Source: Candidatus Hydrogenedentes bacterium ADurb.Bin170 (GTDB lineage: Bacteria; Hydrogenedentota; Hydrogenedentia; Hydrogenedentales; CAITNO01). From it: a stretch of 64,000 bases of DNA. The stretch lies in assembly GCA_002070275.1 (NCBI GenBank), contig MWCY01000011.1:19847-83846 (forward strand). Reading direction: 5' to 3'. Within the stretch, counting starts at the first letter, position 1; each line of letters opens with the position of its first letter. The notes under the pieces are model-generated. The model saw only the letters and a program-made list of their open reading frames with translations, did not search any database and was not told the DNA's origin. This document shows, in pieces, positions 5,362 to 63,353 of the stretch. The translations under genes and the position numbers were made by a program.

Positions 5362-6036
5362 TTATACCATCATTACTACAAGATTCCGGTTGGATGTTTT
5401 GTCGGTTCGATAACTGAAAAACACACCGCCGCACACAGTACAGTGGGGCACAATATGAATATTGTGCCTGAAAACGCCCGCTTTTTCAAGTTGCGCACTG
5501 TTTGTGCCGGGGATATCGAGAAAGCGGTCCCGGCAGGCATACCCCGCCCTATGCCACTGCGCCGCCAACTCCGGAGAGACTTCGTAGCAGCAGCCATGGG
5601 CGCAGGGTCCGATCAGCGCCACAAGAGAAGAAGGCTGCGACCCGAAACGGTGCGTCAGAAGTGCCACTCCCGTCCCGGCAATATTACGGAAACTTCCCTC
5701 CCTACCGGCATGAAGAAGGCAGCCTGCCCGTACTAAGGGATCAAAAAGCAGCACAGGCGCACAATCCGCCACACTGACCCCTGCTGCGATCCCGGCTTTG
5801 CCCAGGAGTATTCCATCCGCTTCCAAAGAAGCGCCGCGCGCCTCTTCGGCACATACTACGGCAATGCCGTGTACCTGCCGCACCCGGACGGGACGTACGC
5901 CGGGTGCACCGGCCAATGTCATAAACGCTTCTGTATTGGGCACCGCCTCATCACGGCTGCCGCAGTCTCCGTCGCTTTTGTCGGACATTGCGGCAACAGA
6001 CAGCCCCGCCTCCTGCATGAGCGAAAAGTGTATCAT
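5362..6036 (-). CDS. pgeF: YfiH/PgeF family purine nucleoside phosphorylase/laccase-domain protein (DUF152)
   Basis: Motifs QVHG..V, ADG, ADCAPVLL, HAGREG. The track's M at 6054 is a TTG; an internal ATG lies at 6036. Confidence 0.75.
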   Translation of the reverse strand: MIHFSLMQEAGLSVAAMSDKSDGDCGSRDEAVPNTEAFMTLAGAPGVRPVRVRQVHGIAVVCAEEARGASLEADGILLGKAGIAAGVSVADCAPVLLFDPLVRAGCLLHAGREGSFRNIAGTGVALLTHRFGSQPSSLVALIGPCAHGCCYEVSPELAAQWHRAGYACRDRFLDIPGTNSAQLEKAGVFRHNIHIVPHCTVCGGVFFSYRTDKTSNRNLVVMMV

Positions 6037-6050
6037 GGCGCATTTTCGCC

Positions 6051-7439
6051 TCAAAGCACATATTGACTCAAATCGCGTTTTTCCGCGATTTCGGAAATCC
6101 TGCTTTCCACGAACTCCGCCGTGATCAAAACCTGCGTCCCTTTGCGGTTGGATGCATCAAAAGAGATGTCTTCCAGCACATACTCTAAAATCGTATGAAG
6201 CCGCCTTGCGCCGATATCTTCGGTTTCACTGTTCACGCGCTCACAGATTTCCGCAATTTTTACCAGAGCCTCCGGTTCAAAATGCAGGGTGACTTCTTCC
6301 GCTTCAAGCATGGCCTGATATTGTTTGATCAGCGAATACTCCGTCTCGGTGAGAATACGCAAAAAATCATCCCGGCTCAGGCTGTCGAGCTCCACACGTA
6401 TGGGAAAGCGTCCCTGAAGTTCCGGGATCAGATCGGACACCTGGGTCATGTGAAAAGCGCCGGCTGCAATGAAAAGAATGTGATCGGTTCGGACTGAACC
6501 GTATTTCGTCAGTACCGTGCTGCCTTCCACGATGGGGAGGATATCGCGCTGGACACCCTCGCGGGACACGTCGGGACCATGTCCCCGATGCCCACGTCCT
6601 GCTATCTTGTCTATTTCATCCAGAAAAACAATACCGCTGTTTTCTGCATTCTCAACACCGCGCCGCGCGGCAAGGTCCATGTCAATCAGCTCATTGAACG
6701 CTTCCTGCAGAAGCACTTCCCGCGCTTCCGCCACGGTGACCTTTTTCGCTTTCCGCCGTTTCGGCGTCATGTGCCCGAAGACATCCTGCAGATTCATGCC
6801 CATTTCTTCCATGCCGCTGGAAGCAAATATCTGGAGCATGGCGTTGTCCTTGGACTCGGTAACGGTCAGTTCCACTTCCTTGTCTTCCAGATCCCCTGCC
6901 GCCAGTTTGGTTCGGATCAGGTTTCTTGCTTTCTCCTGAGCGGCAGCCCCCCGTTCAACAGGCGGCTCATCTCCGGCATCCGGGTCGGCAGGATTGTATC
7001 CTCCTCTTTCAGCATGCCGCATGGTCGGGGGCAGCAGAAGATCCAGAAGACGCTGCTCCGCCTTTTCCTTTGCCCGGGCTTCACATTCCCCACGCAGCTC
7101 CTCCCGCGCCATTTTCACCGCCACTTCCGTAAGTTCCCGGATCATGGACTCGCAATCCCGTCCCACATAACCCACTTCTGTAAATTTGCTCGCTTCCACT
7201 TTAACAAAGGGCGCTTGTGCAAGTTTGGACAGGCGGCGTGCAATTTCCGTTTTACCGACACCGGTGGTTCCTATCATAATGATATTTTTAGGAACTACTT
7301 CTTCCTGAAGTGCTTCAGGCAGCTGAAGGCGGCGCCAGCGGTTTCGCAGCGCAATCGCAACTTTTCGTTTCGCCTGGGTTTGACCGACAATATATTTGTC
7401 CAGTTCCTGAACAATTTCCTGAGGGGTTAATGACTGCAT
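6051..7439 (-). CDS. hslU: ATP-dependent protease ATPase subunit HslU
   Basis: The N-terminus TPQEIVQELDKYIVGQTQAKRKVAIALRNRWRR, the Walker A motif GTTGVGKTEIARRLSKL and a C-terminal AAA+ lid. Confidence 0.95.
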   Translation of the reverse strand: MQSLTPQEIVQELDKYIVGQTQAKRKVAIALRNRWRRLQLPEALQEEVVPKNIIMIGTTGVGKTEIARRLSKLAQAPFVKVEASKFTEVGYVGRDCESMIRELTEVAVKMAREELRGECEARAKEKAEQRLLDLLLPPTMRHAERGGYNPADPDAGDEPPVERGAAAQEKARNLIRTKLAAGDLEDKEVELTVTESKDNAMLQIFASSGMEEMGMNLQDVFGHMTPKRRKAKKVTVAEAREVLLQEAFNELIDMDLAARRGVENAENSGIVFLDEIDKIAGRGHRGHGPDVSREGVQRDILPIVEGSTVLTKYGSVRTDHILFIAAGAFHMTQVSDLIPELQGRFPIRVELDSLSRDDFLRILTETEYSLIKQYQAMLEAEEVTLHFEPEALVKIAEICERVNSETEDIGARRLHTILEYVLEDISFDASNRKGTQVLITAEFVESRISEIAEKRDLSQYVL

Positions 7440-29213: not shown

Positions 29214-29555
29214 TTAATGATCGCAGACATTCTCTCCTGATTCCAGAGTGCCCTCCAGGTAGCGCTGCACCAGGGCTTCCACCGGATCGGCCGGTGCGCC
29301 GATAACCACTTCGATATTGTTCTCGGCAAAAAGCGCCTGGGCACGTGCCCCCATGCCGCCGGCAATAATCACCTGGGCATTGCGCTCAGCAAGCCAGCGC
29401 GGCAGCAGCCCGGGCTGATGCTCCGGCGCATCGACCACATCCACTTTCAGAATGCTTTTCTGCTCCGGATCCGTATCCACGAGCGCAAACTGGGCACAGT
29501 GCCCGAAATGAAGGGCAAGATGCCCCTGAACTACCGGTATAGCAACACGCATCAT
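29214..29555 (-). CDS. NifX/NafY/NifB-C-terminal family (dinitrogenase FeMo-cofactor-binding-like, PF02579) protein
   Basis: MRVAIPV...HFGHCAQFALVD...VIIAGGMGARAQALFAENNIEVV is the canonical PF02579 pattern. Confidence 0.85.
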   Translation of the reverse strand: MMRVAIPVVQGHLALHFGHCAQFALVDTDPEQKSILKVDVVDAPEHQPGLLPRWLAERNAQVIIAGGMGARAQALFAENNIEVVIGAPADPVEALVQRYLEGTLESGENVCDH

Positions 29556-29613
29556 TTTCTCTCCTGTTGTTTTTCAGAGTCGGGCGACACATCCGGTGCA
29601 ACCTCGACCTTCC

Positions 29614-30012
29614 TTATGCTTCTGTTTTCATCTGCTTTACTGATGCCGATGCCTGATAATTTTCCAGCGCAGCACGCAGTGTATTCGATGCCAGCAGTGC
29701 ACAGTGCCGGTGCGCTTCCGGCATACCGCCCAGCGCATTCAGAATATCCTGCTGTGAGATTTCTTTTGCTTCCGCAACGGGCCTGCCTTCTGCAAGTTCT
29801 GTCGCCATGCTTCCGCAGGCGCGGGAAGGACCGCAGCCTGTCGTGGTAAACGAAGCGGCACTCACAATACCTTCATCGACCTGCACCCAGAACTCCATCG
29901 TGTCTCCGCAGGGACCGGTTATTCTGGCGTAGCCGTCCGGCTCCTGCAGTTCATCATAATTTCTTGGATTTCTGAAACGTTCCAATGCCTTGGCGCTGTA
30001 GTTTTCTTCCAT
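29614..30012 (-). CDS. IscU/NifU N-terminal-domain-like Fe-S cluster scaffold
   Basis: NPRNYDEL...ITGPCGDTMEF...TTGCGPSRACGSMATE...HCALLASN, with the three scaffold Cys and the His. Confidence 0.85.
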   Translation of the reverse strand: MEENYSAKALERFRNPRNYDELQEPDGYARITGPCGDTMEFWVQVDEGIVSAASFTTTGCGPSRACGSMATELAEGRPVAEAKEISQQDILNALGGMPEAHRHCALLASNTLRAALENYQASASVKQMKTEA

Positions 30013-30041
30013 CTGACTTGTTGTCCCGTATCTAAAAAAGA

Positions 30042-30980
30042 TCAGCCGCCGTTTCCGCTTTCTGCATCTCCGGCATCAGGCGCTGTACCGTCAAGCATTG
30101 AAGCCACCCGGCACCAGATTTCACGGATCGCCTCAGCTGCGGCACCGCCATAATCAAGAACAGTTTTCCCCGCAACCTGCGCCTCCGTCATCCGGCGGTC
30201 ATAACCGATCCGTCCGACCGGACGGGCGCCCATTGAAAGAGCGACCGCTTCAATGCTTTCCGTCAATTCAGAATTGATATCCCACTTGTTGACACACACC
30301 GCCACGGGCACATTAAAATGCTTCGCCAGCCGGGCAACCCGCTCCAGATCGTGCTGTCCGCTTAACGTCGGTTCCGTGATGATCAATGCGAGCGATGTGC
30401 CTGTAATGGAAGCGATCACCGGACAGCCGATTCCGGGAGGACCGTCGATAATCAGTTTTGCAATCCCCTCCTTTTCCGCTCTGTCTCTTGCGGCACGGCG
30501 CACCGTCGACACCAGCTTGCCCGAGTTTTCCGCGGCAATACCCAGCTTCGCATGAACCATGGGCCCGCAGGGTGTCGAAGAAACATACCACTCCCCTGCC
30601 GTACATTCAGGAAAATCAATGGCGGCGGCAGGGCACCAGTCAACACAGACGCCACAGCCCTCACAGGACAGCGGATCCACTGTATACCGGACATCCGCTC
30701 CCGTATCCTCCCGCCGGATACCCTCAAAGCGGCACCGTTCATAACAGTCTCCGCATCGGGTGCAGTCCTCCTGCCTGATTACCGCCTGATGCCCGCTCCT
30801 GAATTCATAATGCTCTTCCGGCTCCGGGTGCAGCAGCAAATGCAGGTCGGCCGCATCCACGTCACAGTCTGCCAGCACCGCCCTCCCGGCAAGAGACGCA
30901 AAGGCGGCCGTAAGGCTTGTCTTGCCCGTTCCGCCTTTTCCGCTGATGATGACCAGCTCCCGGATATCATGCCTGCTCAT
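30042..30980 (-). CDS. MinD-superfamily P-loop ATPase with inserted 2x[4Fe-4S] ferredoxin domain (COG1149-like), copy 1
   Basis: Deviant Walker A ISGKGGTGKTS. CTRCGDCYERC and CEGCGVCVDWCP ferredoxin motifs. Confidence 0.85.
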   Translation of the reverse strand: MSRHDIRELVIISGKGGTGKTSLTAAFASLAGRAVLADCDVDAADLHLLLHPEPEEHYEFRSGHQAVIRQEDCTRCGDCYERCRFEGIRREDTGADVRYTVDPLSCEGCGVCVDWCPAAAIDFPECTAGEWYVSSTPCGPMVHAKLGIAAENSGKLVSTVRRAARDRAEKEGIAKLIIDGPPGIGCPVIASITGTSLALIITEPTLSGQHDLERVARLAKHFNVPVAVCVNKWDINSELTESIEAVALSMGARPVGRIGYDRRMTEAQVAGKTVLDYGGAAAEAIREIWCRVASMLDGTAPDAGDAESGNGG

Positions 30981-31920
30981 AGCGTTCCCCTATACCGAAA
31001 AACAGCTTGTTTTCCCGTTCCATAACACACAGCCTCCCCTCTTTTACCAGCCTGTCCAACAGCTTCGCCGTTTCAAGCCGATGAAAACCCAGCCCTTCCG
31101 CAATCTCCTCCAGGGGACAGGGACGCCGCCTCAGCATTTCCAGCACAGGTGCCTCCTGAGGCAGCAGCACGCCGCCGCTGTCCGGAATGTAACGGGGCGA
31201 AATAATTTCCGCCTCAGGTTCAAAAAAAGAAACATAGCGCTCCATCACGGAAAAAGAAACCGCTTTTACACGGCTCATGGCGGGCGGACGCTCCACCGTA
31301 TTGATCTGCACTTTATCCGGCCGGATCAGCCGCACCTGTGCCGCAATTTCGCGCACGCTGTCTTCATCATCATTGATACCGTCCATTAGAAAGACTTCGA
31401 GCCACAGGGCACCGGAAAACTCATTTCGGAAAGCAATCAGCCCTTCCAGCATTTTTGCAAAAGAAAGTCCCGCGACAGGCCGGTCTATTTTCTGAAAAAG
31501 ACGCTCATTTCCCGCATCCAGCGAGGGTAAAACAACATCCGCATGAAGGAGCGCATCCCGCACTTCCTGCTGCCAGAAGAGCGCACCGTTGGTAATGACT
31601 GCAACAGGAACAGACGTCAGTGATTTTATTTTCTGAATCAGCTCTCCGAGTCCCGTATGCAGGGCAGGCTCCCCGGCGCCCGAAATCGTTATGTAATCCG
31701 GCGCCGGATGTGTGGCAAGAAAAGCAGCCACTTCCTCCAGAACGGCTTCCACGTCCACATAGGCATCGCGCTGCATGGTGTGGCAGGTGGTGCGCCCCTG
31801 CTCGCAGTAGATGCAGTCATAGGGGCAGGTTTTCGCCGGAATCAGATCCACGCCCAGCGATCTGCCAAGGCGGCGTGATACTACAGGACCAAAGATGAAG
31901 GAATGTTTACGGGAAGTCAT
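30967..31920 (-). CDS. radical SAM protein (COG0731-like) with C-terminal winged-helix domain
   Basis: FGPVVSRRLGRSLGVDL...CPYDCIYC (CxxxCxxC). A C-terminal LEEIAEGLGFHRLETAKLLDRLVKEGRL wHTH. Overlaps its neighbours by 14 and 4 bp. Confidence 0.85.
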   Translation of the reverse strand: MTSRKHSFIFGPVVSRRLGRSLGVDLIPAKTCPYDCIYCEQGRTTCHTMQRDAYVDVEAVLEEVAAFLATHPAPDYITISGAGEPALHTGLGELIQKIKSLTSVPVAVITNGALFWQQEVRDALLHADVVLPSLDAGNERLFQKIDRPVAGLSFAKMLEGLIAFRNEFSGALWLEVFLMDGINDDEDSVREIAAQVRLIRPDKVQINTVERPPAMSRVKAVSFSVMERYVSFFEPEAEIISPRYIPDSGGVLLPQEAPVLEMLRRRPCPLEEIAEGLGFHRLETAKLLDRLVKEGRLCVMERENKLFFGIGERYEQA

Positions 31921-32786
31921 GAACGCACCGCCTTTCCTTTCTCACGCTGCCCCGCACCGTCCCGAATTTTTCCGAGCAATTCCATAAAGGATGCTCTGTA
32001 TTCAGGCAACGCATCAACGATCAGGGCACCTCCGGAGTAGGCAGCTGCAATACGGCGATCCTCGGGAAGTGTCAGCAATACCGGAATATCTTCTGCATCA
32101 CAATAATCCCGCACCCTGGCATCGCCCACGTCCGCACGGTTAATCACTACACCGAAAGGAAGCCCGAGGGTGCGAACCGTCTCCACAGCAAGCTGCAGAT
32201 CATTGAGACAGAATGGAGTCGGTTCGGTAACCAGCACAACGTAATCCATGCCCTTCAGGGTCGTGATCACAGGACAGGAGGTCCCCGGCGGCGCATCATA
32301 AATAATCACTGCCGCATCGGGCGCTTTCGCTTTTACCGCTCGGATCAAAGGCGGCGACATAGCAGCGCCCACGCGCAGCGTCCCCTGCACAAAATGTAAA
32401 TCGCCCGCCATTCCACGGCTGACCGTACCGATCGCATGGGAAGATTCAGTCAAGGCTTTTTCAGGGCAGGCAGGCACACAGCCGCCGCAACCGTGACATA
32501 GCTCCGCAAAAACAATCAGCTTTCCCGCCACACAGGCAAGCGCATTGAAACGACAGACTTCCACGCATTTGCCGCAGCCGGTACATAACGCCGGATCCAC
32601 CTGCGGCACAGGAATTCCCGCAGTTTCAGAAAATGAAAGCTCCGGCTTCAGAAAAAGATGACCGTTTGGCGCCTCCACATCGCAATCCACATAAACAGTT
32701 TCGTCACCCTCCGTAAGGGCAGCCAGATTGGCGGCAACGGTCGTTTTGCCTGTTCCGCCTTTTCCTGATGCGATGGCTATGTGCAT
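31917..32786 (-). CDS. MinD-superfamily P-loop ATPase with inserted 2x[4Fe-4S] ferredoxin domain, copy 2 (start MHIAIASGKGGTGKT; the track ORF is over-extended)
   Basis: IASGKGGTGKTT Walker A, plus CTGCGKCVEVC and CHGCGGCVPACP. Confidence 0.8.
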   Translation of the reverse strand: MHIAIASGKGGTGKTTVAANLAALTEGDETVYVDCDVEAPNGHLFLKPELSFSETAGIPVPQVDPALCTGCGKCVEVCRFNALACVAGKLIVFAELCHGCGGCVPACPEKALTESSHAIGTVSRGMAGDLHFVQGTLRVGAAMSPPLIRAVKAKAPDAAVIIYDAPPGTSCPVITTLKGMDYVVLVTEPTPFCLNDLQLAVETVRTLGLPFGVVINRADVGDARVRDYCDAEDIPVLLTLPEDRRIAAAYSGGALIVDALPEYRASFMELLGKIRDGAGQREKGKAVRS

Positions 32787-33006
32787 GAAAGAAAAAATAT
32801 CCTGATGGTTCTGCCTGAATGGAAGTTTCCGTTTTTCAGGACACTGTCCCGGCAATTCCGAAACCTGTCGGGGCCGTCGGGAGCGACTCCGGTTCCGGAA
32901 TTGCCGATTGAACGGACAGTGCGTCAGTAAGGAGAAAAGAGAAACTCTATAATTAACATGCCTGTCGGGGGTCAGACAAAGGGTCTGAGCAGGAGCAGTT
33001 GCCTGC

Positions 33007-33375
33007 TCAAACCCAATGGCCATCCACAGCGGCAGCATGCATTTCCGCGAGGGCATCACGGCGCCACGCCTGCAGCGCCTCCGAAATCGGTACTTCATCC
33101 GAATGATAAACCCGTATGGATGATGCAGCAAATACAGTAAAGGCTTTGGGGCCGCAATGCCCTGTAACGAGAGCACTTGCTCCCGCTTTCACTACGGCCT
33201 GCGCTGCCTGTATGCCTGCTCCCTGAGGCGCGTTGACATTCTGCTGATTCTCCACCACCGTGTACTCGTCTGTGTCGGTGTCATAAATTAGAAAGCCATC
33301 GGCACGCCCGAAACGGGAACATACAAGCGCATTCAGATCTTTTCCTGATGTCGAAAATGCAATTTTCATAATCAT
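33007..33375 (-). CDS. NifX/NafY-like (PF02579) protein
   Basis: MKIAFSTSGKDL...FGRADGFLIYD...ALVTGHCGPKAF. Confidence 0.75.
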   Translation of the reverse strand: MIMKIAFSTSGKDLNALVCSRFGRADGFLIYDTDTDEYTVVENQQNVNAPQGAGIQAAQAVVKAGASALVTGHCGPKAFTVFAASSIRVYHSDEVPISEALQAWRRDALAEMHAAAVDGHWV

Positions 33376-33418
33376 TTCTTTTCCGGCAGCCGTGCAGGGC
33401 ACTGCTGCTTCCGCTGCG

Positions 33419-33703
33419 TCAGCGGTCAGATGACTTTTCAAGAGAAGCCAGACGGTCCTGTACTTCTTCCAGTGCGCCCTGAAGCCGGGCGGCCTGTTCG
33501 CGCAGGGACTGTGACTCTGTTTCGGAACTTAAACCGAAACCACGACCGAAACCACGACCGAAACCCATACCGCCGCGCATACCGCGGCCTGAACCCGCAC
33601 CACGGCGCGCAGCCATACCACGACCGTCACGCAGGCACCCGCCTGCACCACGCCCCGTCAGGGCGCCTTTTCCGCAAGGTCCTGTTCCATCTCTTCCAGG
33701 CAT
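33419..33703 (-). CDS. DUF5320-like Gly/Arg-rich protein with C-terminal coiled coil
   Basis: MPGRDGTGPCGKGALTGRGAGGC... Gly/Arg-rich N-terminus. LREQAARLQGALEEVQDRLASLEK coiled coil. This family is usually found beside PF02579 genes. Confidence 0.65.
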   Translation of the reverse strand: MPGRDGTGPCGKGALTGRGAGGCLRDGRGMAARRGAGSGRGMRGGMGFGRGFGRGFGLSSETESQSLREQAARLQGALEEVQDRLASLEKSSDR

Positions 33704-33706
33704 AAT

Positions 33707-34393
33707 CTAGTTCCTTTCTTCTTTGTCCAGACTGCCTCTGTTCAGCAGCCATTCTTTCACATCCATCGGAGACATCTGCTTCTGCTGCGACAGCGCCCGG
33801 AACGTCGATCCGGGATCCGCCGTGAAACCCGCTTCCTGCAGGCGACTCAGTGTGTCTTCCAGAAGAAGCCCGGCATCGTCACAAAATTCCTGCACGGTCA
33901 TGCGACCGACACCTGTACCATGACCTGATGCAGGATGCACCGCCTCTGCAGAGAGCGCACCGGCACAGCTTCCAGCTTTCTCCTCTTCGGTCAATGCTGT
34001 AAGGAAGCTGAACGGCGGCACTTCAAAAATGGCACCTGCCGACAGCAGCAGAAAAAGAAGGAGTGCCGTGACCGCTTCTTTTTTCAAATGAAGCCGCTGT
34101 TTTAAAAACAGATAGCGCAACAGAATGCGCCAGTTGAAGTACACATGAATCAACCCGGCAACAACAAAAGTGCAGGCCATAATGATGTGCAGGGCATTCC
34201 ACTGATCTTTCGACAGCAGCAAAACACGCCAGCCTGTTTCCCGGGCAATGCGACAGGACGGAGCAAGGTAAAGCACGAGACCGGACACCGCCAGTGTCAG
34301 AAAAACCAGGCTGATCAGAAAACTGGTAAGCCCTCTGCCGTGCCAGGGCGTTTTCTGTTTGTCTGTTGCCTCTTGTGTGCTCACTGTCATCAT
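33707..34393 (-). CDS. small integral membrane protein (4 TM, conserved His in helices; DUF4405-like?) with soluble C-terminal domain
   Basis: Hydrophobic helices LTSFLISLVFLTLAVSGLVLYL, LHIIMACTFVVAGLIHVYF, ALLLFLLLSAGAIF. Confidence 0.65.
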   Translation of the reverse strand: MMTVSTQEATDKQKTPWHGRGLTSFLISLVFLTLAVSGLVLYLAPSCRIARETGWRVLLLSKDQWNALHIIMACTFVVAGLIHVYFNWRILLRYLFLKQRLHLKKEAVTALLLFLLLSAGAIFEVPPFSFLTALTEEEKAGSCAGALSAEAVHPASGHGTGVGRMTVQEFCDDAGLLLEDTLSRLQEAGFTADPGSTFRALSQQKQMSPMDVKEWLLNRGSLDKEERN

Positions 34394-34399
34394 GCTACC

Positions 34400-34906
34400 T
34401 CACTCATGCCCGAAGGGGCGGTTGCAGCCGGGACATACGGCTGATTCCGGATGCCTCCGGCAGTTGGGAAGACGGCAGCCGCACTCAGGACATACGGAAT
34501 GCCCTCCAGAAAACCCGGGTTTGCCTCTGCCGTATCCCTGTCCTTTTCCGGCGCCGCACCGGCGCCCGCCGGAACCGCAGCCCGGCATGGCAAAAGCGCC
34601 GCTGCAGACAGTGCCTGCGAGCACTGCTGCCAGTATTTCTTCAACATCACCGGAGATAAACGGGATCAGCTGAATGCCGGCGGCAGAAAGCCAGTCGGCA
34701 AAACGCCGGGATACAGCGCCGCACACCAGCTGCCTTACGCCCAGTGCTTCAAGCTGTGAAAGCAGATTCTGTACGGTGCCTCCGGCAATTTCTTTTTCCT
34801 GACGGGACACCACAACCCCTTGCTGCAGCTCAACGACAAGAAACGTCCGGGCTGTATCCAGCACCGGAGAAATGCGTTGTTCCCTTACTGTCAGTGCAAT
34901 CTTCAT
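34400..34906 (-). CDS. NifX/NafY-like domain fused to Cys/Gly-rich zinc-ribbon-like tail
   Basis: An N-terminal PF02579-like MKIALTV...LVCGAVSRRF...LIPFISG. The tail GCGSGGRRCGAGKGQGYGRGKPGFSGGHSVCPECGCRLPNCRRHPESAVCPGC. Confidence 0.8.
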   Translation of the reverse strand: MKIALTVREQRISPVLDTARTFLVVELQQGVVVSRQEKEIAGGTVQNLLSQLEALGVRQLVCGAVSRRFADWLSAAGIQLIPFISGDVEEILAAVLAGTVCSGAFAMPGCGSGGRRCGAGKGQGYGRGKPGFSGGHSVCPECGCRLPNCRRHPESAVCPGCNRPFGHE

Positions 34907-34931
34907 CAGCAGTTCCTTGTATACCTTCTTA

Positions 34932-34947
34932 GAGCATACACCGTGCC
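34932..34947 (-). promoter_or_regulatory. candidate sigma-54 (-24/-12) promoter TGGCAC-GGTGT-ATGCT for the NifX/MinD/radical-SAM operon
   Basis: The minus strand reads TGGCACGgtgtATGCT with correct N5 spacing. GG and GC are conserved and the -12 reads ATGC instead of TTGC. It lies ~25 nt upstream of the ATG at 34906. Confidence 0.5.
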
Positions 34948-35020
34948 AATGATCAAAATATTTTTAACATACTGATATTAAATGAATTACAGGAGAGCGG
35001 GATCGCATTTTCGGCGAGAT

Positions 35021-35088
35021 AAGTCGCATTAATGCGACTATTAGAGATGCAACAGTCGCAATAGTGCGACTTATTTGCGACGCGTCGC
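35021..35088. promoter_or_regulatory. three dyad-symmetric GTCGCA/TGCGAC sites (candidate enhancer/UAS for the adjacent sigma-54 activator)
   Basis: AGTCGCAttaaTGCGACT (35021-35038), AGTCGCAatagTGCGACT (35053-35070), TGCGACgcGTCGCA (35075-35088). Centres are ~32 bp apart, at about -108 and -140 from the -12 element. Confidence 0.5.
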
Positions 35089-36450
35089 AGGAGGGAGCGT
35101 CAGGCCCAGAGCACGAACCTTGCGGAACAGCGTGCTCTTATGCATGCCCAGCAGATCAGCCGCTTTCTGCCTGTTTCCATCGCACGCTTTCAGGGCATCG
35201 AGAATGGCACGGGCCTCCGCTTCCTGAACCGCATTGTTCAGCGACGGAGCAGTCCCAGCGCCGGAGCGGCGGTAAAAAGCCTGCATCGCTTCAGGCAGAC
35301 ATCCGACATCAATGAGCGGCCTGTCACACAGCACGAAGGCATGTTCAATGCTGTTCTCCAGTTCACGGATATTACCCGGATAGTCGTAGGACATCAGCAG
35401 GCGCATTGCCTCCGCAGTGACCCCTTCTACCGTTTTATTCTGCCGGAGATGATTGTTACGACGGATAAACCGGTCCACGAGCAGGGGAATATCTTCCCGG
35501 CGCTCCCGGAGCGGCGGCAGTTCCAGCCTGATCACATTGATTCTGTAATAAAGATCCTGCCTGAAAAGTCCTTCCTGAACCAGTGCGCCGAGCGATTTGT
35601 TGGTGGCGGCAATGATGCGCACATCTGTGTGAAATGCGCGGGTTGCGCCCAGCGGCTCATACTGCTTTTCCTGGAGCACCCGCAGCAGCCGAACCTGCAT
35701 GGCAGGGCTGATATCCCCTATTTCATCCAGAAAAAGGCTCCCTTTTTCCGCCAGAGCAAAGCGGCCGGGCTTGTCTTTGTCCGCTCCGGTAAAAGCACCT
35801 GCCTGATACCCGAAGAGCTCGGACTCCAGCAGCGTATCAGGCAATGCGCCGCAGTTGATGCCAAGAAAAGGTCCTTTGTGCCGGCCGCTCAGATCATGAA
35901 TTGCCCGTGCCAGCAGCTCCTTGCCGGTACCTGTTTCTCCTTCTATGACAACAGGCACCTCGCTGGCTGCCACCTGCGGCAGCATCTGAAAGAGTTTTTC
36001 CATGGCGGCACTTCTGCTGACCATGTCGCCCAAGTCATAGCGATGTTCAATTTCACGCCGCAGCTCTTCCACAAGACTCAGATCACGAAAGGTTTCCACA
36101 CCTCCCACAACATTTCCCCTTTCATCCTTCAGCAGTGCAGTTGAAAGACTGATGGGGATGCGCTCTCCTGCCGCATCGACGATATAGACAGATTTGTTAA
36201 TGATGGGTTCCCCCGAATCCAGCGTGTGACGCAGGGCGCATTCCTCTTCGCAGGTGCTGGCGCGAAAAACTTCGCAGCAGCGCCTGCCCAGTGCTTCTTC
36301 CCGGGGAATACCGGTGATCTCTTCGGCGGCGCGGTTGAAGGAGGTAATACGCCATCCATGATCTACCGTGAATACTCCGTCGGAAATACTTTCCAGAATA
36401 ATCTCCGTGCTCTCCGGCGGCAGCATATCTTTGGAAAAAGGCTGATCCAT
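35071..36450 (-). CDS. sigma-54-dependent transcriptional activator (PAS - AAA+ - Fis-type HTH), PAS domain with Cys4 cluster
   Basis: GAFTGA motif, ESELFGY, Walker A GETGTGKE, and a C-terminal HTH. The PAS has CC-x6-C-x3-C (RRCCEVFRASTCEEEC). Confidence 0.9.
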   Translation of the reverse strand: MDQPFSKDMLPPESTEIILESISDGVFTVDHGWRITSFNRAAEEITGIPREEALGRRCCEVFRASTCEEECALRHTLDSGEPIINKSVYIVDAAGERIPISLSTALLKDERGNVVGGVETFRDLSLVEELRREIEHRYDLGDMVSRSAAMEKLFQMLPQVAASEVPVVIEGETGTGKELLARAIHDLSGRHKGPFLGINCGALPDTLLESELFGYQAGAFTGADKDKPGRFALAEKGSLFLDEIGDISPAMQVRLLRVLQEKQYEPLGATRAFHTDVRIIAATNKSLGALVQEGLFRQDLYYRINVIRLELPPLRERREDIPLLVDRFIRRNNHLRQNKTVEGVTAEAMRLLMSYDYPGNIRELENSIEHAFVLCDRPLIDVGCLPEAMQAFYRRSGAGTAPSLNNAVQEAEARAILDALKACDGNRQKAADLLGMHKSTLFRKVRALGLTLPPATRRK

Positions 36451-36532
36451 GGCACCTCATGTTTTCAGAAAAAAGCGCAGCATTGCACAGCCTCAGTGTA
36501 GACCCTTGACCGGCAGCGCTTCAACCTGCACA

Positions 36533-36578
36533 ATAAAAAAACCTGAAAAGGAGCGACGTTCCCGTTCTCCTTTTCAGG
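36533..36578 (-). terminator. rho-independent terminator downstream of the sugar-binding protein gene
   Basis: cctgaaaaggag...ctccttttcagg hairpin followed by T9 on the minus strand. Confidence 0.7.
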
Positions 36579-36604
36579 CATTGCGTCAAAGAAATTTCAA
36601 AGGG

Positions 36605-37582
36605 CTATTTGCCCGTATTCAGCAGCTTCTGCACTTCCGGACTTTCCAGATTTTCCAGCGTCACCACCGTGACTCCCGTGTCAATGATCGGCGGCACCTC
36701 TTCCCCTTTGAGCGATGCCACAGCCGCTTTCACGCCTTCATAGCCCATCTTGAAAGGATCCTGCACAATCAGTGCCTGAATCACTCCTTCTTTCAGCGCA
36801 TTGATCTCTTCTTCGGTCGCATCAAAGCCGACCAGTTTGACCTTTCCGGCTTTTCCTGCCGCCCGGAGTGCCTGAGCTGCACCGATGGCGCCGGGTTCGT
36901 TGGTTGCGAAAATACCGCCCAGATCGGGATGTGCCGTCAGCATATCGGAGGTCACATTCATTCCTGTACTGACATCACTCTGGGTATAGTTCGTGGCAAC
37001 AATTTTCATGCCCGGGAATTCAGTCACCCCTTCCTTGAAACCGCGCTCACGGATTTCAGACGTTGCAGCGCCGGAAATGAAGGGAAGCAGCCCCAGTTCG
37101 CCCTGTCCTCCCATGAGATCCGCCAGCACGCGTGCCGCCATTTTGGCGCCTTCGAGATTATCCGTGGCAACGAGACTTTTCGGAATATCCGACTTCACAC
37201 CCGAATCAACCATGACGACAGGAATGCCCGCCCTGTCCGCCTGTGCGATGACGGCACCCAGCGCATTTTCATCGCACGCCGCCATGACAATGGCACTCAC
37301 GCCCCGAGTAATCATGTCCTGCACAATATTGATTTGCTGGGCGATCTCGGTTTCCTTGGGAGGACCCTGCCAGACCACAGAGGCACCGCACTCGGCTGCA
37401 GCCGCTTCCGCTCCCGCCTTCACACCCAGCCAGAACTGATGAGACAAACCTTTGGGGATCACAGCAATTTCCAGAGCACCGCTCTTCGCCCCGCCGGAAC
37501 CGGAACTGCCGCTTCCACTGCCGCCGCAGCCGGCAAGACAAATCAGCGACAACAGAACTGCGCCTGTCGTTATGTATCTCAT
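36605..37582 (-). CDS. ABC transporter periplasmic sugar-binding lipoprotein (RbsB/monosaccharide-binding family)
   Basis: Lipobox LAGC plus a Gly/Ser linker. A PBP type I fold (VIPKGLSHQFW...VDSG...VGFD). Confidence 0.85.
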   Translation of the reverse strand: MRYITTGAVLLSLICLAGCGGSGSGSSGSGGAKSGALEIAVIPKGLSHQFWLGVKAGAEAAAAECGASVVWQGPPKETEIAQQINIVQDMITRGVSAIVMAACDENALGAVIAQADRAGIPVVMVDSGVKSDIPKSLVATDNLEGAKMAARVLADLMGGQGELGLLPFISGAATSEIRERGFKEGVTEFPGMKIVATNYTQSDVSTGMNVTSDMLTAHPDLGGIFATNEPGAIGAAQALRAAGKAGKVKLVGFDATEEEINALKEGVIQALIVQDPFKMGYEGVKAAVASLKGEEVPPIIDTGVTVVTLENLESPEVQKLLNTGK

Positions 37583-37609
37583 CGAAAATTCTCCTTGTAA
37601 TTGCGAATC

Positions 37610-55712: not shown

Positions 55713-57604
55713 AAAGGGACCAGAGACAGCAGAAGCACGACGAAGTCTTTTCAGAACACACCACTTTTTTCCCGGAGGATGCCACAGAAACAGGTCTGTG
55801 CCTGCTGGCACTCACACTGCCTCTGGGTATCGGCGCACGTGTCGCCGGTCCTCTTTATCTGCATCATCCGGCGCTGCTCCTTCTCCTCTTCCTCCTCGGC
55901 AGAGATTGGCAGCGCATCAAAAGGCTGACCGTTCCTTTCGAACTGATCTTCCCTGCGACGCTGCTGTGTCTCCTGTCACTGCTCCTGATCCCTGGAGGCT
56001 CCGCCGCTGTAGCCGGAAAAATAATTGCCTTTTCTCTTTTCTTTCTGCTTATTTATCACAGCACCCGAAGGAGTGCTGTGGTCTGGCGGGCGCTTCAACT
56101 CTCTCTGTGGTCGAGCAGTCTGGTGATCCTGCTCAGTCTGCCGGCACAGCACGGGCTTCTCTTCCCCACTGCATTTCAGCCCGGAAACTCCTTTGTCTGG
56201 CTGGGACCTTCCAATTTCCGCTCCGGTCCCTTTCACCTCATCGCTGTGCTGCTGCTTCCTTTTCTGCTGCTGACTGCACGGATGACAGGTATGCACCGTT
56301 CCAGGCATTCTGTTGCTCTGCTGGAAACACTGCCGGTGCTGCTGCCGGGTATTGTTCTGTATCAGTCAGGCACTTTTCCCGCTTCCGGGACCGATTCCGG
56401 AACCGCTTTTCTTTTCCCCGCATTACCGCTGACCCTGACGGCACTCTGGCTCGCCGCACGCACCGCCGCAAAACTGCAGGTCGCACGGAGCCACATGCCT
56501 CAGGCGCTTGCTGCACTCCTTGCTCTTTCTGTATTGACAGGAACGGTATTTTTTCTCCTGACCGACAATATGCCCGACGGCTACGCTGTTTTTCTCTTTG
56601 CGCTTCTTGCCGCCTGCGCCAAACCCCGCCTGAAATGGAATGAGGCCGCACCGAACGGCACTGTGCTTCTGATACTGCCTGCCGCACTCCTGCTTATTTT
56701 TAATCTGACTTTCATCCGCAGCGGTGATCCCCGCCATTACGGACATACGGCGGAACAGGCGCTCCACAGCCGGGATTATGCCGCACTTCAGGCACAGCTG
56801 GACTTTGTGCAGAACCGGTGTCCCGGCGAAAGATATGCCGATTTCTGCGAAGCGAGACTTCATCTGGCACTGGGCAATCTGGATACTGCCCGTCACTGCT
56901 TTGCACAGTCGCTCCTGCCCGGCAGAAACAGGCTCCTGCCGCCGCCGGGAACACAGGAAATTACCCGCTTTCTCGATGACATGCGAGATGCCAGTTCCGC
57001 TCTCCCTGAATCGCTCCGCGGTATCGCCTATGAACAGGCACTGCTGGCGGCAGGGCGGGAACGGCATGCCCTTTCGCTGCTCGAAATTCGCAATCCTGTC
57101 GAGACGCACACAACACTGAATCCCCTCCCCGCGGCTGCCGCACTGGCGCAGCTTCTCGAAAGGCCGGAGCTCGAAGAGAAATTCCGCCGATGGGACGGAG
57201 CGTTGCTCGCAGCGATTCTGAAATCGGCGCATCCCCTCAACGAACTCAGAGTAGCGCCGCCGGGCTTTCCCGAAAACAGGCTGCCGCTGATCGCCTGTGC
57301 CCGCATTGAGGGGAATCGGGTGGAACTGTCCCTTTTCTCTCCTGCCAGGGAGGAAGGCGCGTCTTATATCAACCCGGCAGCAACAGAGATCTTTTCTCCG
57401 GAGCATTCTTTTCCTGATTTCTGGGGAGAGCTGTATCAGAACGGATCCGGCGCATGGCGGCTGCCTTTTTCCGTTTCCGCGGAGCTGGCGCCCCTCGACG
57501 AAGCGCCTTTCTCTTTCTATCCTGATGCCATGCCATCCGATCCGGAAACCGAAGGTATCACACAACTGGTCATTTATATACCCGGCAGCGGAGAAACGCC
57601 ATGA
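55709..57604 (+). CDS. polytopic membrane protein with C-terminal TPR-like soluble domain
   Basis: Roughly 10 predicted TM helices in the first ~330 aa, followed by helical repeats. Confidence 0.6.
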   Translation: MKRDQRQQKHDEVFSEHTTFFPEDATETGLCLLALTLPLGIGARVAGPLYLHHPALLLLLFLLGRDWQRIKRLTVPFELIFPATLLCLLSLLLIPGGSAAVAGKIIAFSLFFLLIYHSTRRSAVVWRALQLSLWSSSLVILLSLPAQHGLLFPTAFQPGNSFVWLGPSNFRSGPFHLIAVLLLPFLLLTARMTGMHRSRHSVALLETLPVLLPGIVLYQSGTFPASGTDSGTAFLFPALPLTLTALWLAARTAAKLQVARSHMPQALAALLALSVLTGTVFFLLTDNMPDGYAVFLFALLAACAKPRLKWNEAAPNGTVLLILPAALLLIFNLTFIRSGDPRHYGHTAEQALHSRDYAALQAQLDFVQNRCPGERYADFCEARLHLALGNLDTARHCFAQSLLPGRNRLLPPPGTQEITRFLDDMRDASSALPESLRGIAYEQALLAAGRERHALSLLEIRNPVETHTTLNPLPAAAALAQLLERPELEEKFRRWDGALLAAILKSAHPLNELRVAPPGFPENRLPLIACARIEGNRVELSLFSPAREEGASYINPAATEIFSPEHSFPDFWGELYQNGSGAWRLPFSVSAELAPLDEAPFSFYPDAMPSDPETEGITQLVIYIPGSGETP

Positions 57605-61355: not shown

Positions 61356-63353
61356 ATGCGTTTTTTCAGCGTGATTTTTTGTCTTTCTCTGGCGTTAACT
61401 GCCACAGCTGCCGATTTCAGCGTACTGCCTGCCAATCCGGATGGCACGCCGCATGCCGCCATGATGTACAAATACCTCCTGCATGAGGCAGAAGGGTGTC
61501 TCAACGCGCGCATGGAAGCCTATGAAGCACTGAAGACGGAAGCAGACATTCTCGCCTGGCAGGAGAACTTGCGCAGCCGTTTTACTGAGAGTCTTGGCGG
61601 TTTTCCGGAACGCTGTCCCCTGAATGCACGTATTACCGGACAGGGCGAAAAAGAGCACTTCCGTTATGAGAAAGTCATTTTTGAAAGTCAGCCAGGATTG
61701 CTGGTGACCGCTATTCTATATCTCCCCAAAGGACAGGGACCCTGGCCGGGCGTCATTGTTCCCTGCGGGCATGCAGCCGAGGGAAAAGGTATGGATGCCT
61801 ATCAGCGTGCTTCCATGCTTCTGGCTGCCAACGGCATGGCGGCGCTCTGCTACGATCCCATCGGTCAGGGTGAACGCTGCACATTTCTCAAAGAAGACGG
61901 TTCGGTCGAACTGGGCTCTGTTATTGACCATACCCTTGTGGGTGCCAAGGCGATTCTGACCGGCATGAACACCGCTTCCTTCCGTGTCTGGGACGGCATG
62001 CGCGCCATCGATTATCTTCAGAGCCGAGACGACATCATTGCTGACAAAATCGGCTGCACCGGGAACTCAGGCGGCGGCACGCTAACCAGTTATCTCATGG
62101 CACTGGATCCGCGTATTGTCTGCGCTGCCCCTTCCTGCTATCTGACCAGCTTCGACCGGCTGCTCAACACCATCGGGCCCCAGGACGCCGAGCAGAATGT
62201 TTTCGGGCAGATCAGCTACGGGTTTGACCATGCCGACTATCTGCATCTGCATATGCCGAACCCCGTCCTTATGTGCGTGGCAACCAGAGACTTCTTCGAC
62301 ATTAACGGCACCTGGTCCACTTTCCGGCAGGCGAAAAGACTCTATACCCGTCTGGGTGTGGCAGAACGGATTGATCTTATCGAAAACGACGAAGAACACG
62401 GATTTCACAAAGCACAGCGGGAAGGGATGGTCCGCTGGATGAGCCGCTGGCTGCTGCAGCAGGATCGCTTTATTACCGAGCCGGATTTTGATATTTTTAC
62501 GGAGAAAGAATTCCTGTGCACTGACAGGGGTCAAGTCATTTACGAAGCAGGCGCCCGATCCGTCCTCGACCTGCTTTCAGAACGAGAAAAGATGCTGGCA
62601 CAGAAACGCACCGCCTTCAACCGTTCTGCTGACCCCTCTGCTATCCGGGAGAAAATAAAAGAGCTGATCGCATTGCGCACGAGTGATACAGCTGCGCCCG
62701 AAGCGCTTGTGCTGAAAGAAGACACTTATAAGGGAATCCCCCTCCAGTATCTGGCTCTGAACCCTGAGCCCGGTATTGTACTCCCGGCATTGCTTGCCAT
62801 GCCCGAGGCTTTTACCGGAAGCTGGATACTCATCTGTGCGGCAGAAGGCAAAGCATCTCTTTTTGATAACCCGGAAAGAATGCAGGCCCTTCTGAAAGAA
62901 GGCAACGCTGTCCTCGCTCTTGATCTGCGCGGTCTTGGCGAAAGCGCCAATCATGAGGGCGGACTCGGCTGGCACAAAACCGTAGGTCCTGACTGGCAGG
63001 ACTTTTTCCTGGCTTTTCTGCTCGGGCGCAGCTATGTCGGCATGCGCACCGAAGACATACTCACCGCCGCGCATTGGCTGAAAGCCAGAGAAGACAAGGC
63101 GATCCGGCTGGTAGCGACAGGCGAGGCAACCGTTCCGGCGCGGCACGCCGCAGCTCTGGAACCGGATCTGTTCGAAACGCTTCGTCTGGAGGGCGGCATC
63201 CCCTCCTGGGCGGAGGTGGTACATACGACCCGGGCAAAGCATCAGCTGATCAATACCGTTCACAATGCCCTTGCCTGGTATGACCTGCCTGACCTTACAG
63301 CGCTGACTCAGGCGCAGGTGGAAGAAATCAGCAGCACTGTGCCGGAATTCTAG
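61356..63353 (+). CDS. secreted alpha/beta hydrolase (acetyl-xylan-esterase / dienelactone-hydrolase-like)
   Basis: Signal peptide. Nucleophile elbow GCTGNSGGG. A Asp/His later (EEHGFH). Confidence 0.7.
   Translation: MRFFSVIFCLSLALTATAADFSVLPANPDGTPHAAMMYKYLLHEAEGCLNARMEAYEALKTEADILAWQENLRSRFTESLGGFPERCPLNARITGQGEKEHFRYEKVIFESQPGLLVTAILYLPKGQGPWPGVIVPCGHAAEGKGMDAYQRASMLLAANGMAALCYDPIGQGERCTFLKEDGSVELGSVIDHTLVGAKAILTGMNTASFRVWDGMRAIDYLQSRDDIIADKIGCTGNSGGGTLTSYLMALDPRIVCAAPSCYLTSFDRLLNTIGPQDAEQNVFGQISYGFDHADYLHLHMPNPVLMCVATRDFFDINGTWSTFRQAKRLYTRLGVAERIDLIENDEEHGFHKAQREGMVRWMSRWLLQQDRFITEPDFDIFTEKEFLCTDRGQVIYEAGARSVLDLLSEREKMLAQKRTAFNRSADPSAIREKIKELIALRTSDTAAPEALVLKEDTYKGIPLQYLALNPEPGIVLPALLAMPEAFTGSWILICAAEGKASLFDNPERMQALLKEGNAVLALDLRGLGESANHEGGLGWHKTVGPDWQDFFLAFLLGRSYVGMRTEDILTAAHWLKAREDKAIRLVATGEATVPARHAAALEPDLFETLRLEGGIPSWAEVVHTTRAKHQLINTVHNALAWYDLPDLTALTQAQVEEISSTVPEF

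Follow-up and report, generated by a model that had tools for sequence, protein, structure and literature searches.

A probable sigma-54 control region resembling the Desulfovibrio OrpR/orp switch upstream of an orp-like operon in a Hydrogenedentes genome

In sigma-54 systems such as NtrC at glnAp2 and NifA at its UAS (TGT-N10-ACA), an AAA+ GAFTGA activator binds dyads ~80–150 bp upstream of a -24/-12 promoter and acts through IHF-assisted looping. NorR, which carries a non-haem iron centre in its GAF domain, recognizes GT-N7-AC sites at norVW, and each of the three enhancer sites there is needed if the active oligomer is to assemble.

A related switch is known from Desulfovibrio (Nitratidesulfovibrio) vulgaris Hildenborough (DvH), where the enhancer-binding protein OrpR (DVU2106), together with sigma-54 and IHF, controls the orp1 and orp2 operons (PMC3897727, PMC8359166). 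Evidence from EMSA, reporter fusions and ChIP-seq established that OrpR binds palindromes upstream of the orp operons' sigma-54 promoters and that IHF is needed (PMC3897727, PMC8359166); the palindromes are bound both in vitro and in vivo (PMC8359166). By ChIP-seq OrpR is the sole regulator of the orp operons, and it senses redox via an Fe-S PAS domain (PMC3897727, PMC8359166) with the ligand pattern C52/[DE]54/C61/C65 (PMC8359166). The orpR gene has its own sigma-70 promoter, and the functional IHF site at orp1 was IHF2 (PMC3897727).

We analysed a 64-kb stretch of DNA from a Hydrogenedentes genome, here called the window, in which an activator gene and a metallocluster-protein operon are separated by a 164-bp spacer. 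We consider it very likely that an orp-like Fe-S/metallocluster-protein operon has its control region in this spacer and is subject to redox-switched sigma-54 activation of the OrpR type. The genes and the sequences upstream of the activator are as follows.

36578–36531, minus: terminator hairpin and T-run of the preceding sugar-binding-protein gene (hairpin read from the sequence, gene from Pfam)
36524–36495, minus: weak sigma-70-like match, TTGAAG-N18-TACACT, upstream of the activator gene
35071..36450, minus: OrpR-like enhancer-binding protein, 459 aa (Pfam: PAS, Sigma54_activat, AAA_lid and HTH_8)
29214..34906, minus: target operon, about nine tightly packed genes (Pfam and NCBIfam), listed below
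34400–34906, minus: NifX-like/Di-Nase, the first operon gene
33707–34393, minus: DUF4405
33419–33703, minus: DUF5320
33007–33441, minus: Di-Nase-like
within 31917–33176, minus: MinD-type ATPase with 2x[4Fe-4S]
30967–31920, minus: radical SAM
30042–30980, minus: second MinD-ferredoxin
29614–30012, minus: IscU/NifU
29214–29555, minus: Di-Nase resembling the MrpORP C-domain

The activator is identical to OQB33570.1, which was deposited as 'ZraR'. No NCBIfam model claims it; the top match, PrdR, scores 375 bits where the cut-off is 795. On reading its sequence we found the GAFTGA loop, Walker A and Walker B all intact, and a cysteine triad in the PAS domain with the arrangement C58-x-E60-x6-C67-x3-C71. 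The triad and its acidic residue are kept in 76–78 of the 81 sequences aligned (the window and 80 relatives), and the triad and GAFT[GD]A in 76–80 of the same 81. The sigma-70-like match upstream of the gene is tentative, because it falls below the scanner threshold.

The operon holds three Di-Nase-type ORFs and two MinD-ferredoxin ORFs by Pfam and NCBIfam, and its products have counterparts in the DvH ORP complex among proteins of the Orp8, Orp3/Orp4 and Orp9 domain types (PMC6345978). The MrpORP model matches by its Di-Nase part alone, with 123 bits against a cut-off of 450, and the operon is therefore without a fused MrpORP.

Between the last codons of the activator gene and the first ATG of the operon, we found the following elements.

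35089..35076: site A, inverted TGCGAC-gc-GTCGCA, TGCGACgcGTCGCA, centre 35082.5
35071..35054: dyad B (distal), aGTCGCActatTGCGACt, an exact palindrome, centre 35062.5
35039..35022: dyad C (promoter-proximal), aGTCGCAttaaTGCGACt, an exact palindrome, centre 35030.5
35007..35002, minus: seventh half-site, imperfect (TGCGAT), 22 bp downstream from dyad C's proximal half
34977..34965, minus: IHF-like site TATCAGTATGTTA, a perfect match to WATCARNNNNTTR, between the dyads and the promoter
34948..34933, minus: candidate sigma-54 -24/-12 element TGGCACGGTGTATGCT, with GG at 34947–34946 and GC at 34935–34934
34918–34914, minus: AAGGA, a ribosome-binding site 7 nt ahead of the ATG at 34906 (read from the sequence)

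A sequence-only reading of this DNA had proposed a sigma-54 promoter ~25 nt before the first operon gene, with correct GG/GC spacing and one mismatch. The element is indeed present: its last base lies 26 nt from the ATG at 34906, its GG and GC doublets are exactly 10 bp apart, and it departs from TGGCAC-N5-TTGCW at a single position. A window scan returned it as the sole such match in the 64 kb. It predicts a transcription start near 34922. A promoter scan found no sigma-70-like promoter on the minus strand of the spacer, and no RpoN box is encoded within the 64-kb window. Other sigma-54-like strings, at 61442 on the plus strand, 48729 on the minus strand and 55806 on the plus strand, lie inside ORFs with no activator gene close by.

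The same reading had described two 18-bp dyads of the form AGTCGCA-N4-TGCGACT, followed by an inverted variant overlapping the activator gene's last codons. Both dyads are exact and fit aGTCGCA-N4-TGCGACt, and the inverted site is where it was placed, within the final five codons (A T R R K); the first A of dyad B is the last base of the gene's TAA stop codon. The proposed geometry held in part. The ~32-bp distance between centres, and with it the three helical turns, applies to the two canonical dyads (B to C, 32 bp) but not to the inverted site, which is centred 20 bp from B. The sites had also been put ~100–150 bp upstream; measured from the -24 GG, the centres of C, B and A lie at 84, 116 and 136 bp, or at about -108, -140 and -160 relative to the predicted start. 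In 64 kb one would expect ~0.005 exact GTCGCA-N4-TGCGAC sites, against the two found 32 bp apart, and the window holds no third exact copy besides B and C. The inverted arrangement of site A is likewise expected ~0.005 times per window, and 106 bp contain 6 of the window's 29 half-sites.

The centre of the IHF-like site lies 24.5 bp upstream of the -24 GG. This match is weak when taken alone, because the window contains six perfect IHF matches against three expected.

To ask which of these elements are conserved, we compared the window with a close relative (L201) whose activator is 96% identical. Only 1 of 68 element positions differs between the two, against 28 of 97 positions elsewhere (P=1.4e-6). 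The sigma-54 element (0/16) and the IHF-like site (0/13) are unchanged, as are the AAGGA ribosome-binding site and the TGCGAT half-site. In dyad C the half-sites are intact and the spacer has changed at one of four positions; in dyad B one of 14 half-site positions and three of four spacer positions have changed. Site A keeps its half-sites and shows a single change in its 2-bp spacer, in a region that is coding.

We then turned to more distant loci, using 80 with activator relatives at 44–70% identity (654 kb in all), from MAGs labelled Hydrogenedentota, Nitrospirales, Desulfobacterota, Spirochaetota, Planctomycetota and others. The gene order of enhancer-binding protein, NifX-like, MinD and MinD is conserved in ~45 of them. 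From several phyla we obtained 34 orthologous spacers, or 35 with the window included. In an unbiased hexamer ranking of the 34, GTCGCA/TGCGAC came out on top, with 60 occurrences against 3.3 expected (P ~1e-52), and TGGCAC was enriched in the same count. A -24/-12 element is present in 35/35 spacers, and in 34 of these its GC lies 13–44 nt (64 in one locus) upstream of the estimated ATG of the NifX-like gene; the exception, L077, has it 273 nt from the estimated start. The ATGCT variant of the -12 part recurs in three orthologs (L004, L006 and L077), and several others have TTGT, not TTGC. The dyads lie 85–150 bp further upstream. The A+T-rich tract is general among the spacers (66–73% A+T over the 60 bp upstream of the -24), and an IHF-like site with at most one mismatch occurs in 11 of the 35, which is weak conservation across the family.

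Dyads with at most one mismatch number 35 in the 654 kb, against 1.5 expected, and 30 of the 35 lie 50–200 bp upstream of a sigma-54-like site, as do 5.5% of random positions. The spacing within dyad pairs clusters at 31–34 and 40–44 bp, that is, three or four helical turns. Dyad C of the window agrees with the consensus of the family. Within the clade the dyad spacer is N4 in 21/27 dyads and N3 in none of the 27. Four loci (L031, L039, L045 and L059) have extra half-sites, phased at ~10 bp, beside the distal dyad. Site A was absent from every ortholog more distant than the 96% relative; in the window it is a possible auxiliary activator site. In five loci (L009, L015, L019, L023 and L056), the dyad lies 0.4–3.6 kb from the regulator gene. 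The displaced dyads adjoin the operon's own promoter, upstream of the NifX-like gene, in four of the five; in L015 the dyad adjoins a sigma-54-like element, and a NifX-like gene was not found there. Regulator and operon can be parted by other genes, and the dyads then remain with the promoter.

The layout proposed at the outset, an activator UAS ahead of a sigma-54 promoter, thus finds support in the complete activator encoded alongside, in its conservation across phyla, in the displacement of the dyads together with the promoter, in the substitution footprint and in homology to DvH. Since the operators of the two systems differ, it is the co-occurrence of dyads and activator, not the DvH precedent, that suggests recognition of the dyads by the window's activator. 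One could instead suppose that the dyads are operators of another protein, for example an Fe-S or metal-status repressor, and that the activator binds elsewhere or non-specifically. The motif does differ from the experimentally defined OrpR site, and dyad binding in this clade is a prediction from sequence. Yet in dozens of genomes the dyads accompany the activator gene and a sigma-54 promoter at enhancer distance, and across the 34 spacers the unbiased k-mer count offered no conserved alternative candidate for the activator's site. The CGCA...TGCG core, the paired-dyad layout and the distances also fit OrpR sites. In addition, a switch of the half-site to ATTGCA in L050 and L051 accompanies a changed recognition helix (INKSTLWRK for the usual HKSTLFRK). 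This covariation is suggestive and a weak argument, being one clear switch in two related genomes. We regard a different DNA-binding protein at the dyads as improbable.

Less probable still, in our view, is that the palindromes act as RNA hairpins, terminating or stabilizing the activator mRNA at its 3' end. They do start at the stop codon, and the RNA can form 7-bp stems with folding energies of -9 to -10 kcal/mol. Neither hairpin is followed by a T-run, however, and a terminator scan makes no call. What is kept across phyla is the half-site sequence itself, whereas a hairpin would allow compensatory change; in the five displaced loci the dyads stand far from the regulator's stop codon, and OrpR binds the homologous palindromes of DvH in vitro as well as in vivo (PMC8359166). 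We rejected a terminator because there is no T-run and because a displaced operon has the dyads at its promoter. That chance palindromes and a chance GG-N10-GC fell together in an A+T-rich spacer is barely credible: elsewhere in the window loose forms of both patterns are indeed found at chance frequency, but two exact dyads 32 bp apart against 0.005 expected, the strong conservation across phyla, the hexamer enrichment, the association of dyads with promoters and the L201 footprint refute it.

OrpR-type activation from the spacer is the reading we retain. The elements exist, exceed chance by far and are conserved along with the regulator and its operon; DNA binding and looping, the transcription start and the response to redox are what we infer. 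With its C-terminal HTH_8 domain the activator, in dimeric form, would bind dyads B and C, which at 32 bp apart would present themselves on the same face of the helix; inverted site A and the stray half-site TGCGAT may be used too. The bound dimers would build the AAA+ ring. The A+T-rich stretch and the IHF-type site would bend the DNA and let the ring reach the sigma-54 RNA polymerase, which would wait in a closed complex at TGGCAC-N5-ATGC. ATP hydrolysis would open the promoter and yield a transcript from near 34922 through the approximately nine genes. Homology with Desulfovibrio OrpR suggests that the PAS domain holds a redox-sensitive [4Fe-4S] cluster on C58, C67 and C71 (plus E60); it is the conserved ligands that point to redox switching through such a cluster. 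The activator would stay bound to DNA and fire at low redox potential only, so that the oxygen-sensitive Orp-type proteins would be made only under reducing conditions.

A genome-wide regulon scan had been suggested along with the original reading. In the 64-kb window, we found no further sites above chance. In a reverse scan for the exact 18-mer in metagenome contigs, 120 were sampled among the matches listed. At least eight orp-type loci emerged: in 8 of the 120 the 18-mer lies beside OrpR-like or NifX-like genes, and a sigma-54-like element stands 50–200 bp away in six of these eight. Among the remaining 112 sampled contigs, sigma-54-like sites were nearby in five (~4.5%), which is background (5.5%). 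A wider regulon is therefore unsupported, with window sites at chance and the non-orp sampled contigs at the background sigma-54 rate.

These results give a testable operator, aGTCGCA-wwww-TGCGACt, and a promoter; in databases the regulator concerned currently goes under 'ZraR' or 'PAS domain protein'. They also suggest that an OrpR-type switch and its cis-elements are conserved well beyond the δ-Proteobacteria, the regulator's supposed confines. About 40 natural operator variants offer material for studying the co-evolution of enhancer-binding proteins and their sites (N3 versus N4 spacers; three- versus four-turn dyad spacing). The understanding of sigma-54 regulation is unchanged, and the function of the ORP proteins is the more interesting question. 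We also entertain, with less than even confidence, a broader view: the OrpR-orp module of Fe-S PAS activator, operator and sigma-54 promoter may be a redox switch complete in itself that spread, probably horizontally, across at least five to six anaerobic phyla, with its operator reset in this large clade to GTCGCA-N4-TGCGAC and with site A helping to nucleate the hexamer. An operator one bp wider than the Desulfovibrio site would then imply a changed HTH dimer geometry. If this is true, OrpR-orp is not a δ-proteobacterial speciality, and site A arose in this Hydrogenedentes lineage.

How does the locus compare with the described systems? With NtrC and NifA it shares the general layout, and it differs in having an Fe-S PAS domain (not a receiver or GAF domain), in its motif and in its targets. 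As at norVW, three close sites could serve as the nucleus on which three dimers form a hexamer; unlike in NorR, the half-sites of the third site here are of inverted polarity, and the site lacks conservation. A further likeness to NorR, the inhibition of the AAA+ domain by the sensory domain, has been proposed for OrpR (PMC8359166).

The differences from DvH begin with the operator, which reads aGTCGCA-N4-TGCGACt here and GGGCGYRTTTTGCGCCC there (best read GGCGYR-N3-TRCGCC); the two have the core CGCA/TGCG in common and differ at two half-site positions and one spacer base. The window has one long co-directional operon, whereas DvH has two divergent sigma-54 operons. This operon carries extra genes (DUF4405, DUF5320, radical SAM and IscU) and, unlike DvH, is without the fused P-loop and Di-Nase MrpORP. 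The loop motif is GAFTGA here and GAFTDA in DvH, a possible third, inverted site is added, and the locus belongs to a Hydrogenedentes MAG, outside the δ-Proteobacteria to which OrpR had been described as limited.

The likenesses are as follows. The activator has the PAS-AAA+-HTH architecture with C-x-[DE]-x6-C-x3-C, and the spacing of C58/E60/C67/C71 is identical to that in DvH. Its gene stands directly upstream of the operon in the same direction, apparently with a separate promoter, for which the sigma-70-like match is a tentative candidate. The operon opens with small NifX-like/Di-Nase proteins and MinD-type Fe-S ATPases, behind a -24/-12 promoter near the first gene and two palindromes at about -100 to -140, and there is no sign of a regulon beyond the local operon. 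The dyads are 32 bp apart in the window and 31 bp at DvH orp1; they lie 84–116 and 72–104 bp from the GG, respectively, and the candidate IHF-like site here is 24.5 bp from the GG, compared with 20.5 bp for IHF1 of orp1. DVU2106 itself was absent among the best 120 of 8000 activator matches, the best 120 all being closer relatives; architecture, the Cys motif and synteny suggest orthology at the protein level. Judged by its sequence, the locus is a close Hydrogenedentes counterpart of the redox-controlled OrpR/orp switch known from Desulfovibrio.

The minus strand between the activator gene and the NifX-like gene downstream of it was read from 35125 to 34895 and carries the following elements.

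35125–34895, minus strand: stretch read, entering through the 3' end of the activator gene (...CCT GCG ACG CGT CGC AAA TAA)
35089–35076, minus strand: inverted site A, TGCGACgcGTCGCA, within the last codons of the activator gene
35071–35054, minus strand: dyad B, aGTCGCActatTGCGACt
35039–35022, minus strand: dyad C, aGTCGCAttaaTGCGACt
35007–35002, minus strand: single TGCGAT half-site
34977–34965, minus strand: IHF-like site, TATCAGTATGTTA, inside an A+T-rich tract
34948–34933, minus strand: -24/-12-like string, TGGCACGGTGTATGCT
34918–34914, minus strand: AAGGA ribosome-binding site
34906, minus strand: ATG of the first operon gene

Dyads B and C are separated by 14 nt on the minus strand. Their 16-bp cores are exact palindromes, of which ~0.005 are expected per window, and no further exact GTCGCA-N4-TGCGAC copy was found in the window. 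Within the window, only TGGCACGGTGTATGCT comes within one mismatch of TGGCAC-N5-TTGCW. Our re-reading of the strand and these chance counts bear out the sequence-only reading, which had described a sigma-54 promoter and three GTCGCA/TGCGAC palindromes. Its site spacing of ~32 bp holds for B and C but not for inverted site A, which lies 20 bp from its neighbor. Three more TGGCAC-N5-NTGC strings (61442–61457, plus; 48729–48714, minus; 55806–55821, plus) fall within long ORFs, one of them antisense in an S-adenosylhomocysteine hydrolase gene; none has an activator gene nearby, and they are probably chance occurrences.

The activator (459 aa; 35071–36450, minus strand) consists of PAS, Sigma54_activat, AAA_lid_14 and HTH_8 domains, with the GAFTGA loop and Walker motifs intact. 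Its sequence matches OQB33570.1 exactly, an entry deposited as 'ZraR'; database names (OQB33570.1, HNZ47522.1, HOD95195.1) are 'Transcriptional regulatory protein ZraR' or 'PAS domain S-box-containing protein'. The protein falls short of the cut-off of every NCBIfam model, which leaves the family without a curated name. The preceding gene encodes a periplasmic sugar-binding protein, and its 3' end and the region 5' of the activator gene contain two further features.

36531–36578, minus strand: strong intrinsic terminator (12-bp stem and T7) ending the sugar-binding-protein gene
36495–36524, minus strand: weak sigma-70-like TTGAAG-N18-TACACT, 5' of the activator gene

Because the preceding gene ends in a 12-bp hairpin and T-run, followed by ~100 bp of non-coding DNA, the activator gene is predicted to form its own transcription unit. 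An apparent plus-strand 383-aa ORF here (36449–37600, no Pfam match) probably just shadows the Peripla_BP_4 gene on the minus strand (36605–37582). The downstream operon comprises ~9 tightly packed genes.

Gene 1: NifX-like/Di-Nase
Gene 2: DUF4405
Gene 3: DUF5320
Gene 4: second Di-Nase-like ORF
Gene 5: MinD-type ATPase with two [4Fe-4S] motifs
Gene 6: radical SAM
Gene 7: second MinD-ferredoxin
Gene 8: IscU/NifU
Gene 9: Di-Nase closely resembling the MrpORP C-domain

Two of its minus-strand ORFs, 33007–33441 and 31917–33176, bear on where a MinD gene begins. The P-loop domain of the MinD ORF (31917–33176) starts only at residue 132 and orthologs align with that part alone, so the true start is probably ~130 codons further downstream, with an additional small Di-Nase gene in the operon.

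Scanning one genome for each species, we obtained 80 related loci (activator identity 44–70%), all from MAGs, labeled Hydrogenedentota, Nitrospirales, several Desulfobacterota/Syntrophia lineages, Spirochaetota, Planctomycetota, Aminicenantes and Zixibacteria. Some 45 of the 80 preserve the arrangement activator, NifX-like, MinD, MinD. We counted hexamers in 34 activator/NifX-like spacers, excluding the window and using the remainder of the loci as background. GTCGCA/TGCGAC ranked first (60 observed, 3.3 expected; P ~1e-52), followed by words overlapping it, and TGGCAC was likewise significant. Every spacer examined has a -24/-12 element, almost always 13–44 nt from the estimated start codon (64 nt in locus L032, 273 nt in L077), and most have one to three dyads 85–150 bp upstream of that element. 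Dyads with at most one mismatch number 35 in 654 kb (1.5 expected), and 30 of these sit 50–200 bp upstream of a sigma-54-like element, as do 5.5% of random positions. Across the family the consensus is a-GTCGCA-(A/T-rich N4)-TGCGAC-t, and adjacent dyads are spaced by 31–34 or 40–44 bp, corresponding to three or four turns of the helix. Roughly one in four orthologous promoters (L001, L002, L026, L027, L032, L044, L065, L070, L072) has TTGT or TTGA at the -12 rather than TTGC, the C of the GC doublet being substituted and the -24 TGGCA[CT] kept.

Locus L201, whose activator is 96% identical, differs from the window at 30 of 188 aligned positions. With the elements fixed beforehand (B and C half-sites, stray half-site, IHF-like site, -24/-12, ribosome-binding site), changes numbered 1/68 inside them and 28/97 elsewhere (Fisher P = 1.4e-6), 4 of the 8 dyad-spacer positions being among the latter. 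Such a distribution would be expected if protein contacts the half-sites and leaves the spacer between them free.

In four loci (L009, L019, L023, L056) the activator and NifX-like genes are separated by other genes, and the dyad and -24/-12 element lie 0.4–3.2 kb from the activator stop codon, immediately 5' of the NifX-like gene. L015 has a dyad and a sigma-54-like element 3.6 kb downstream of the activator, but a NifX-like gene was not found there. Since the displaced dyads keep to the operon promoter, the putative sites go with the promoter and not with the regulator's 3' end. In one relative (L203 2895–3055 and L204; GCA_001577815.1; activator 79% identical), the activator gene is followed not by the NifX-like gene but by a 410-aa gene that is unrelated to it and lacks a Pfam match, and both dyad positions hold only degenerate remnants, ACTCCCAtatcCGTGAT and GGTCACAagtcTCCGACT, which look like decay following loss of the target operon. 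Exact GTCGCA-N4-TGCGAC dyads also occur 60–150 bp upstream of the activator gene start in L011 (1423–1438) and L056 (3399–3414), and neither has a sigma-54-like element closer than 200 bp. Autoregulation may account for them, or they may be left over from a second, divergent promoter like that of orp2 in Desulfovibrio vulgaris Hildenborough (DvH). L037 has tandem activator gene copies (3560–4894 and 5678–6979), each followed by an identical sigma-54 element, TGGCATGTTTCCTGCT. Four ~795-aa proteins (P0006, P0018, P0045, P0048; e.g., Desulfogranum japonicum) carry additional N-terminal PAS domains and, among the matches listed, score as high as the 460-aa orthologs, pointing to a subfamily that receives additional sensory input.

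Other parts of the reading are less certain. Site A lies in coding sequence; its half-sites are intact in L201, and it is absent from relatives at 73% identity and beyond. A chance origin is very unlikely, and site A may plausibly assist oligomer assembly, because additional half-sites in ~10-bp phase adjoin the distal dyad in several orthologs. The IHF-like site is a perfect consensus, unchanged in L201, but is matched with at most one mismatch in only 11 of 35 spacers, and the window has several such perfect matches (6 observed, 3 expected). Half-site variants appear to track the recognition helix loosely; the clearest case, thin as evidence, pairs ATTGCA with INKSTLWRK (two Sedimentisphaerales MAGs) versus GTCGCA with HKSTLFRK.

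Outside the spacer, no occurrence of the motif above chance was found in the window. Searching metagenomes for the exact 18-mer gave a sample of at least 120 contigs. In 8 of the 120 listed, OrpR-like or NifX-like genes adjoin the dyad, and six of these 8 have a sigma-54-like element 50–200 bp away; the other 112 have nearby sigma-54-like sites at background rate only. This agrees with a regulon that stays strictly local, as it does in DvH.

Conservation across loci, the L201 substitutions and the likeness to OrpR support the earlier proposal of a sigma-54 promoter with activator sites. On sequence grounds the spacer is an OrpR-type sigma-54 control region, for which we infer activator binding, a transcription start, an rpoN gene in the genome and a redox response. 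In DvH, two sigma-54 operons, orp1 and orp2, flank the gene for the activator DVU2106 (OrpR), and their products form the Orange Protein complex: the Di-Nase Orp8, the MinD-like Fe-S proteins Orp3/Orp4 and the MrpORP Orp9 (PMC6345978). Each of the two promoters has palindromes upstream that OrpR binds, and the IHF sites lying between palindromes and promoters are required (PMC3897727). Its PAS domain holds a redox-sensitive [4Fe-4S] cluster dependent on C52, C61 and C65, with D/E54 conserved; OrpR remains DNA-bound and activates only at low redox potential (PMC8359166). C58, E60, C67 and C71 of the window protein reproduce the DvH spacing of C52, D/E54, C61 and C65 at a constant offset of six, and are conserved in 76–78 of 81 aligned sequences.

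In both DvH orp1 and the window, the regulator gene lies immediately 5' of the operon in the same orientation. Measured on sequence from the 2014 supplement, the orp1 dyad centers are 31 bp apart (window, 32 bp) and 103.5 and 72.5 bp upstream of the GG (window, 116 and 84 bp), IHF-type sites lie 20.5 and 58.5 bp upstream of the GG (window, 24.5 bp), and the GC is 36 nt from the ATG (window, 28 nt). The operators differ: DvH has GGGCGYRTTTTGCGCCC, best read as GGCGYR-N3-TRCGCC, whereas the window's clade has GTCGCA-N4-TGCGAC, and among YGCA-Nk-TGCR dyads in orthologous spacers k=4 occurs in 21/27 and k=3 in 0/27. Where DvH has two divergent operons, the window has one long operon, with additional DUF4405, DUF5320, radical SAM and IscU genes and without a fused MrpORP. 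According to the 2021 paper (PMC8359166), OrpR seems to be confined to δ-Proteobacteria, whereas the present host is a Candidatus Hydrogenedentes MAG. Relative to the DvH system, the window's control region has a lineage-specific operator, and it gives OrpR-type control a phylogenetic range wider than that described.
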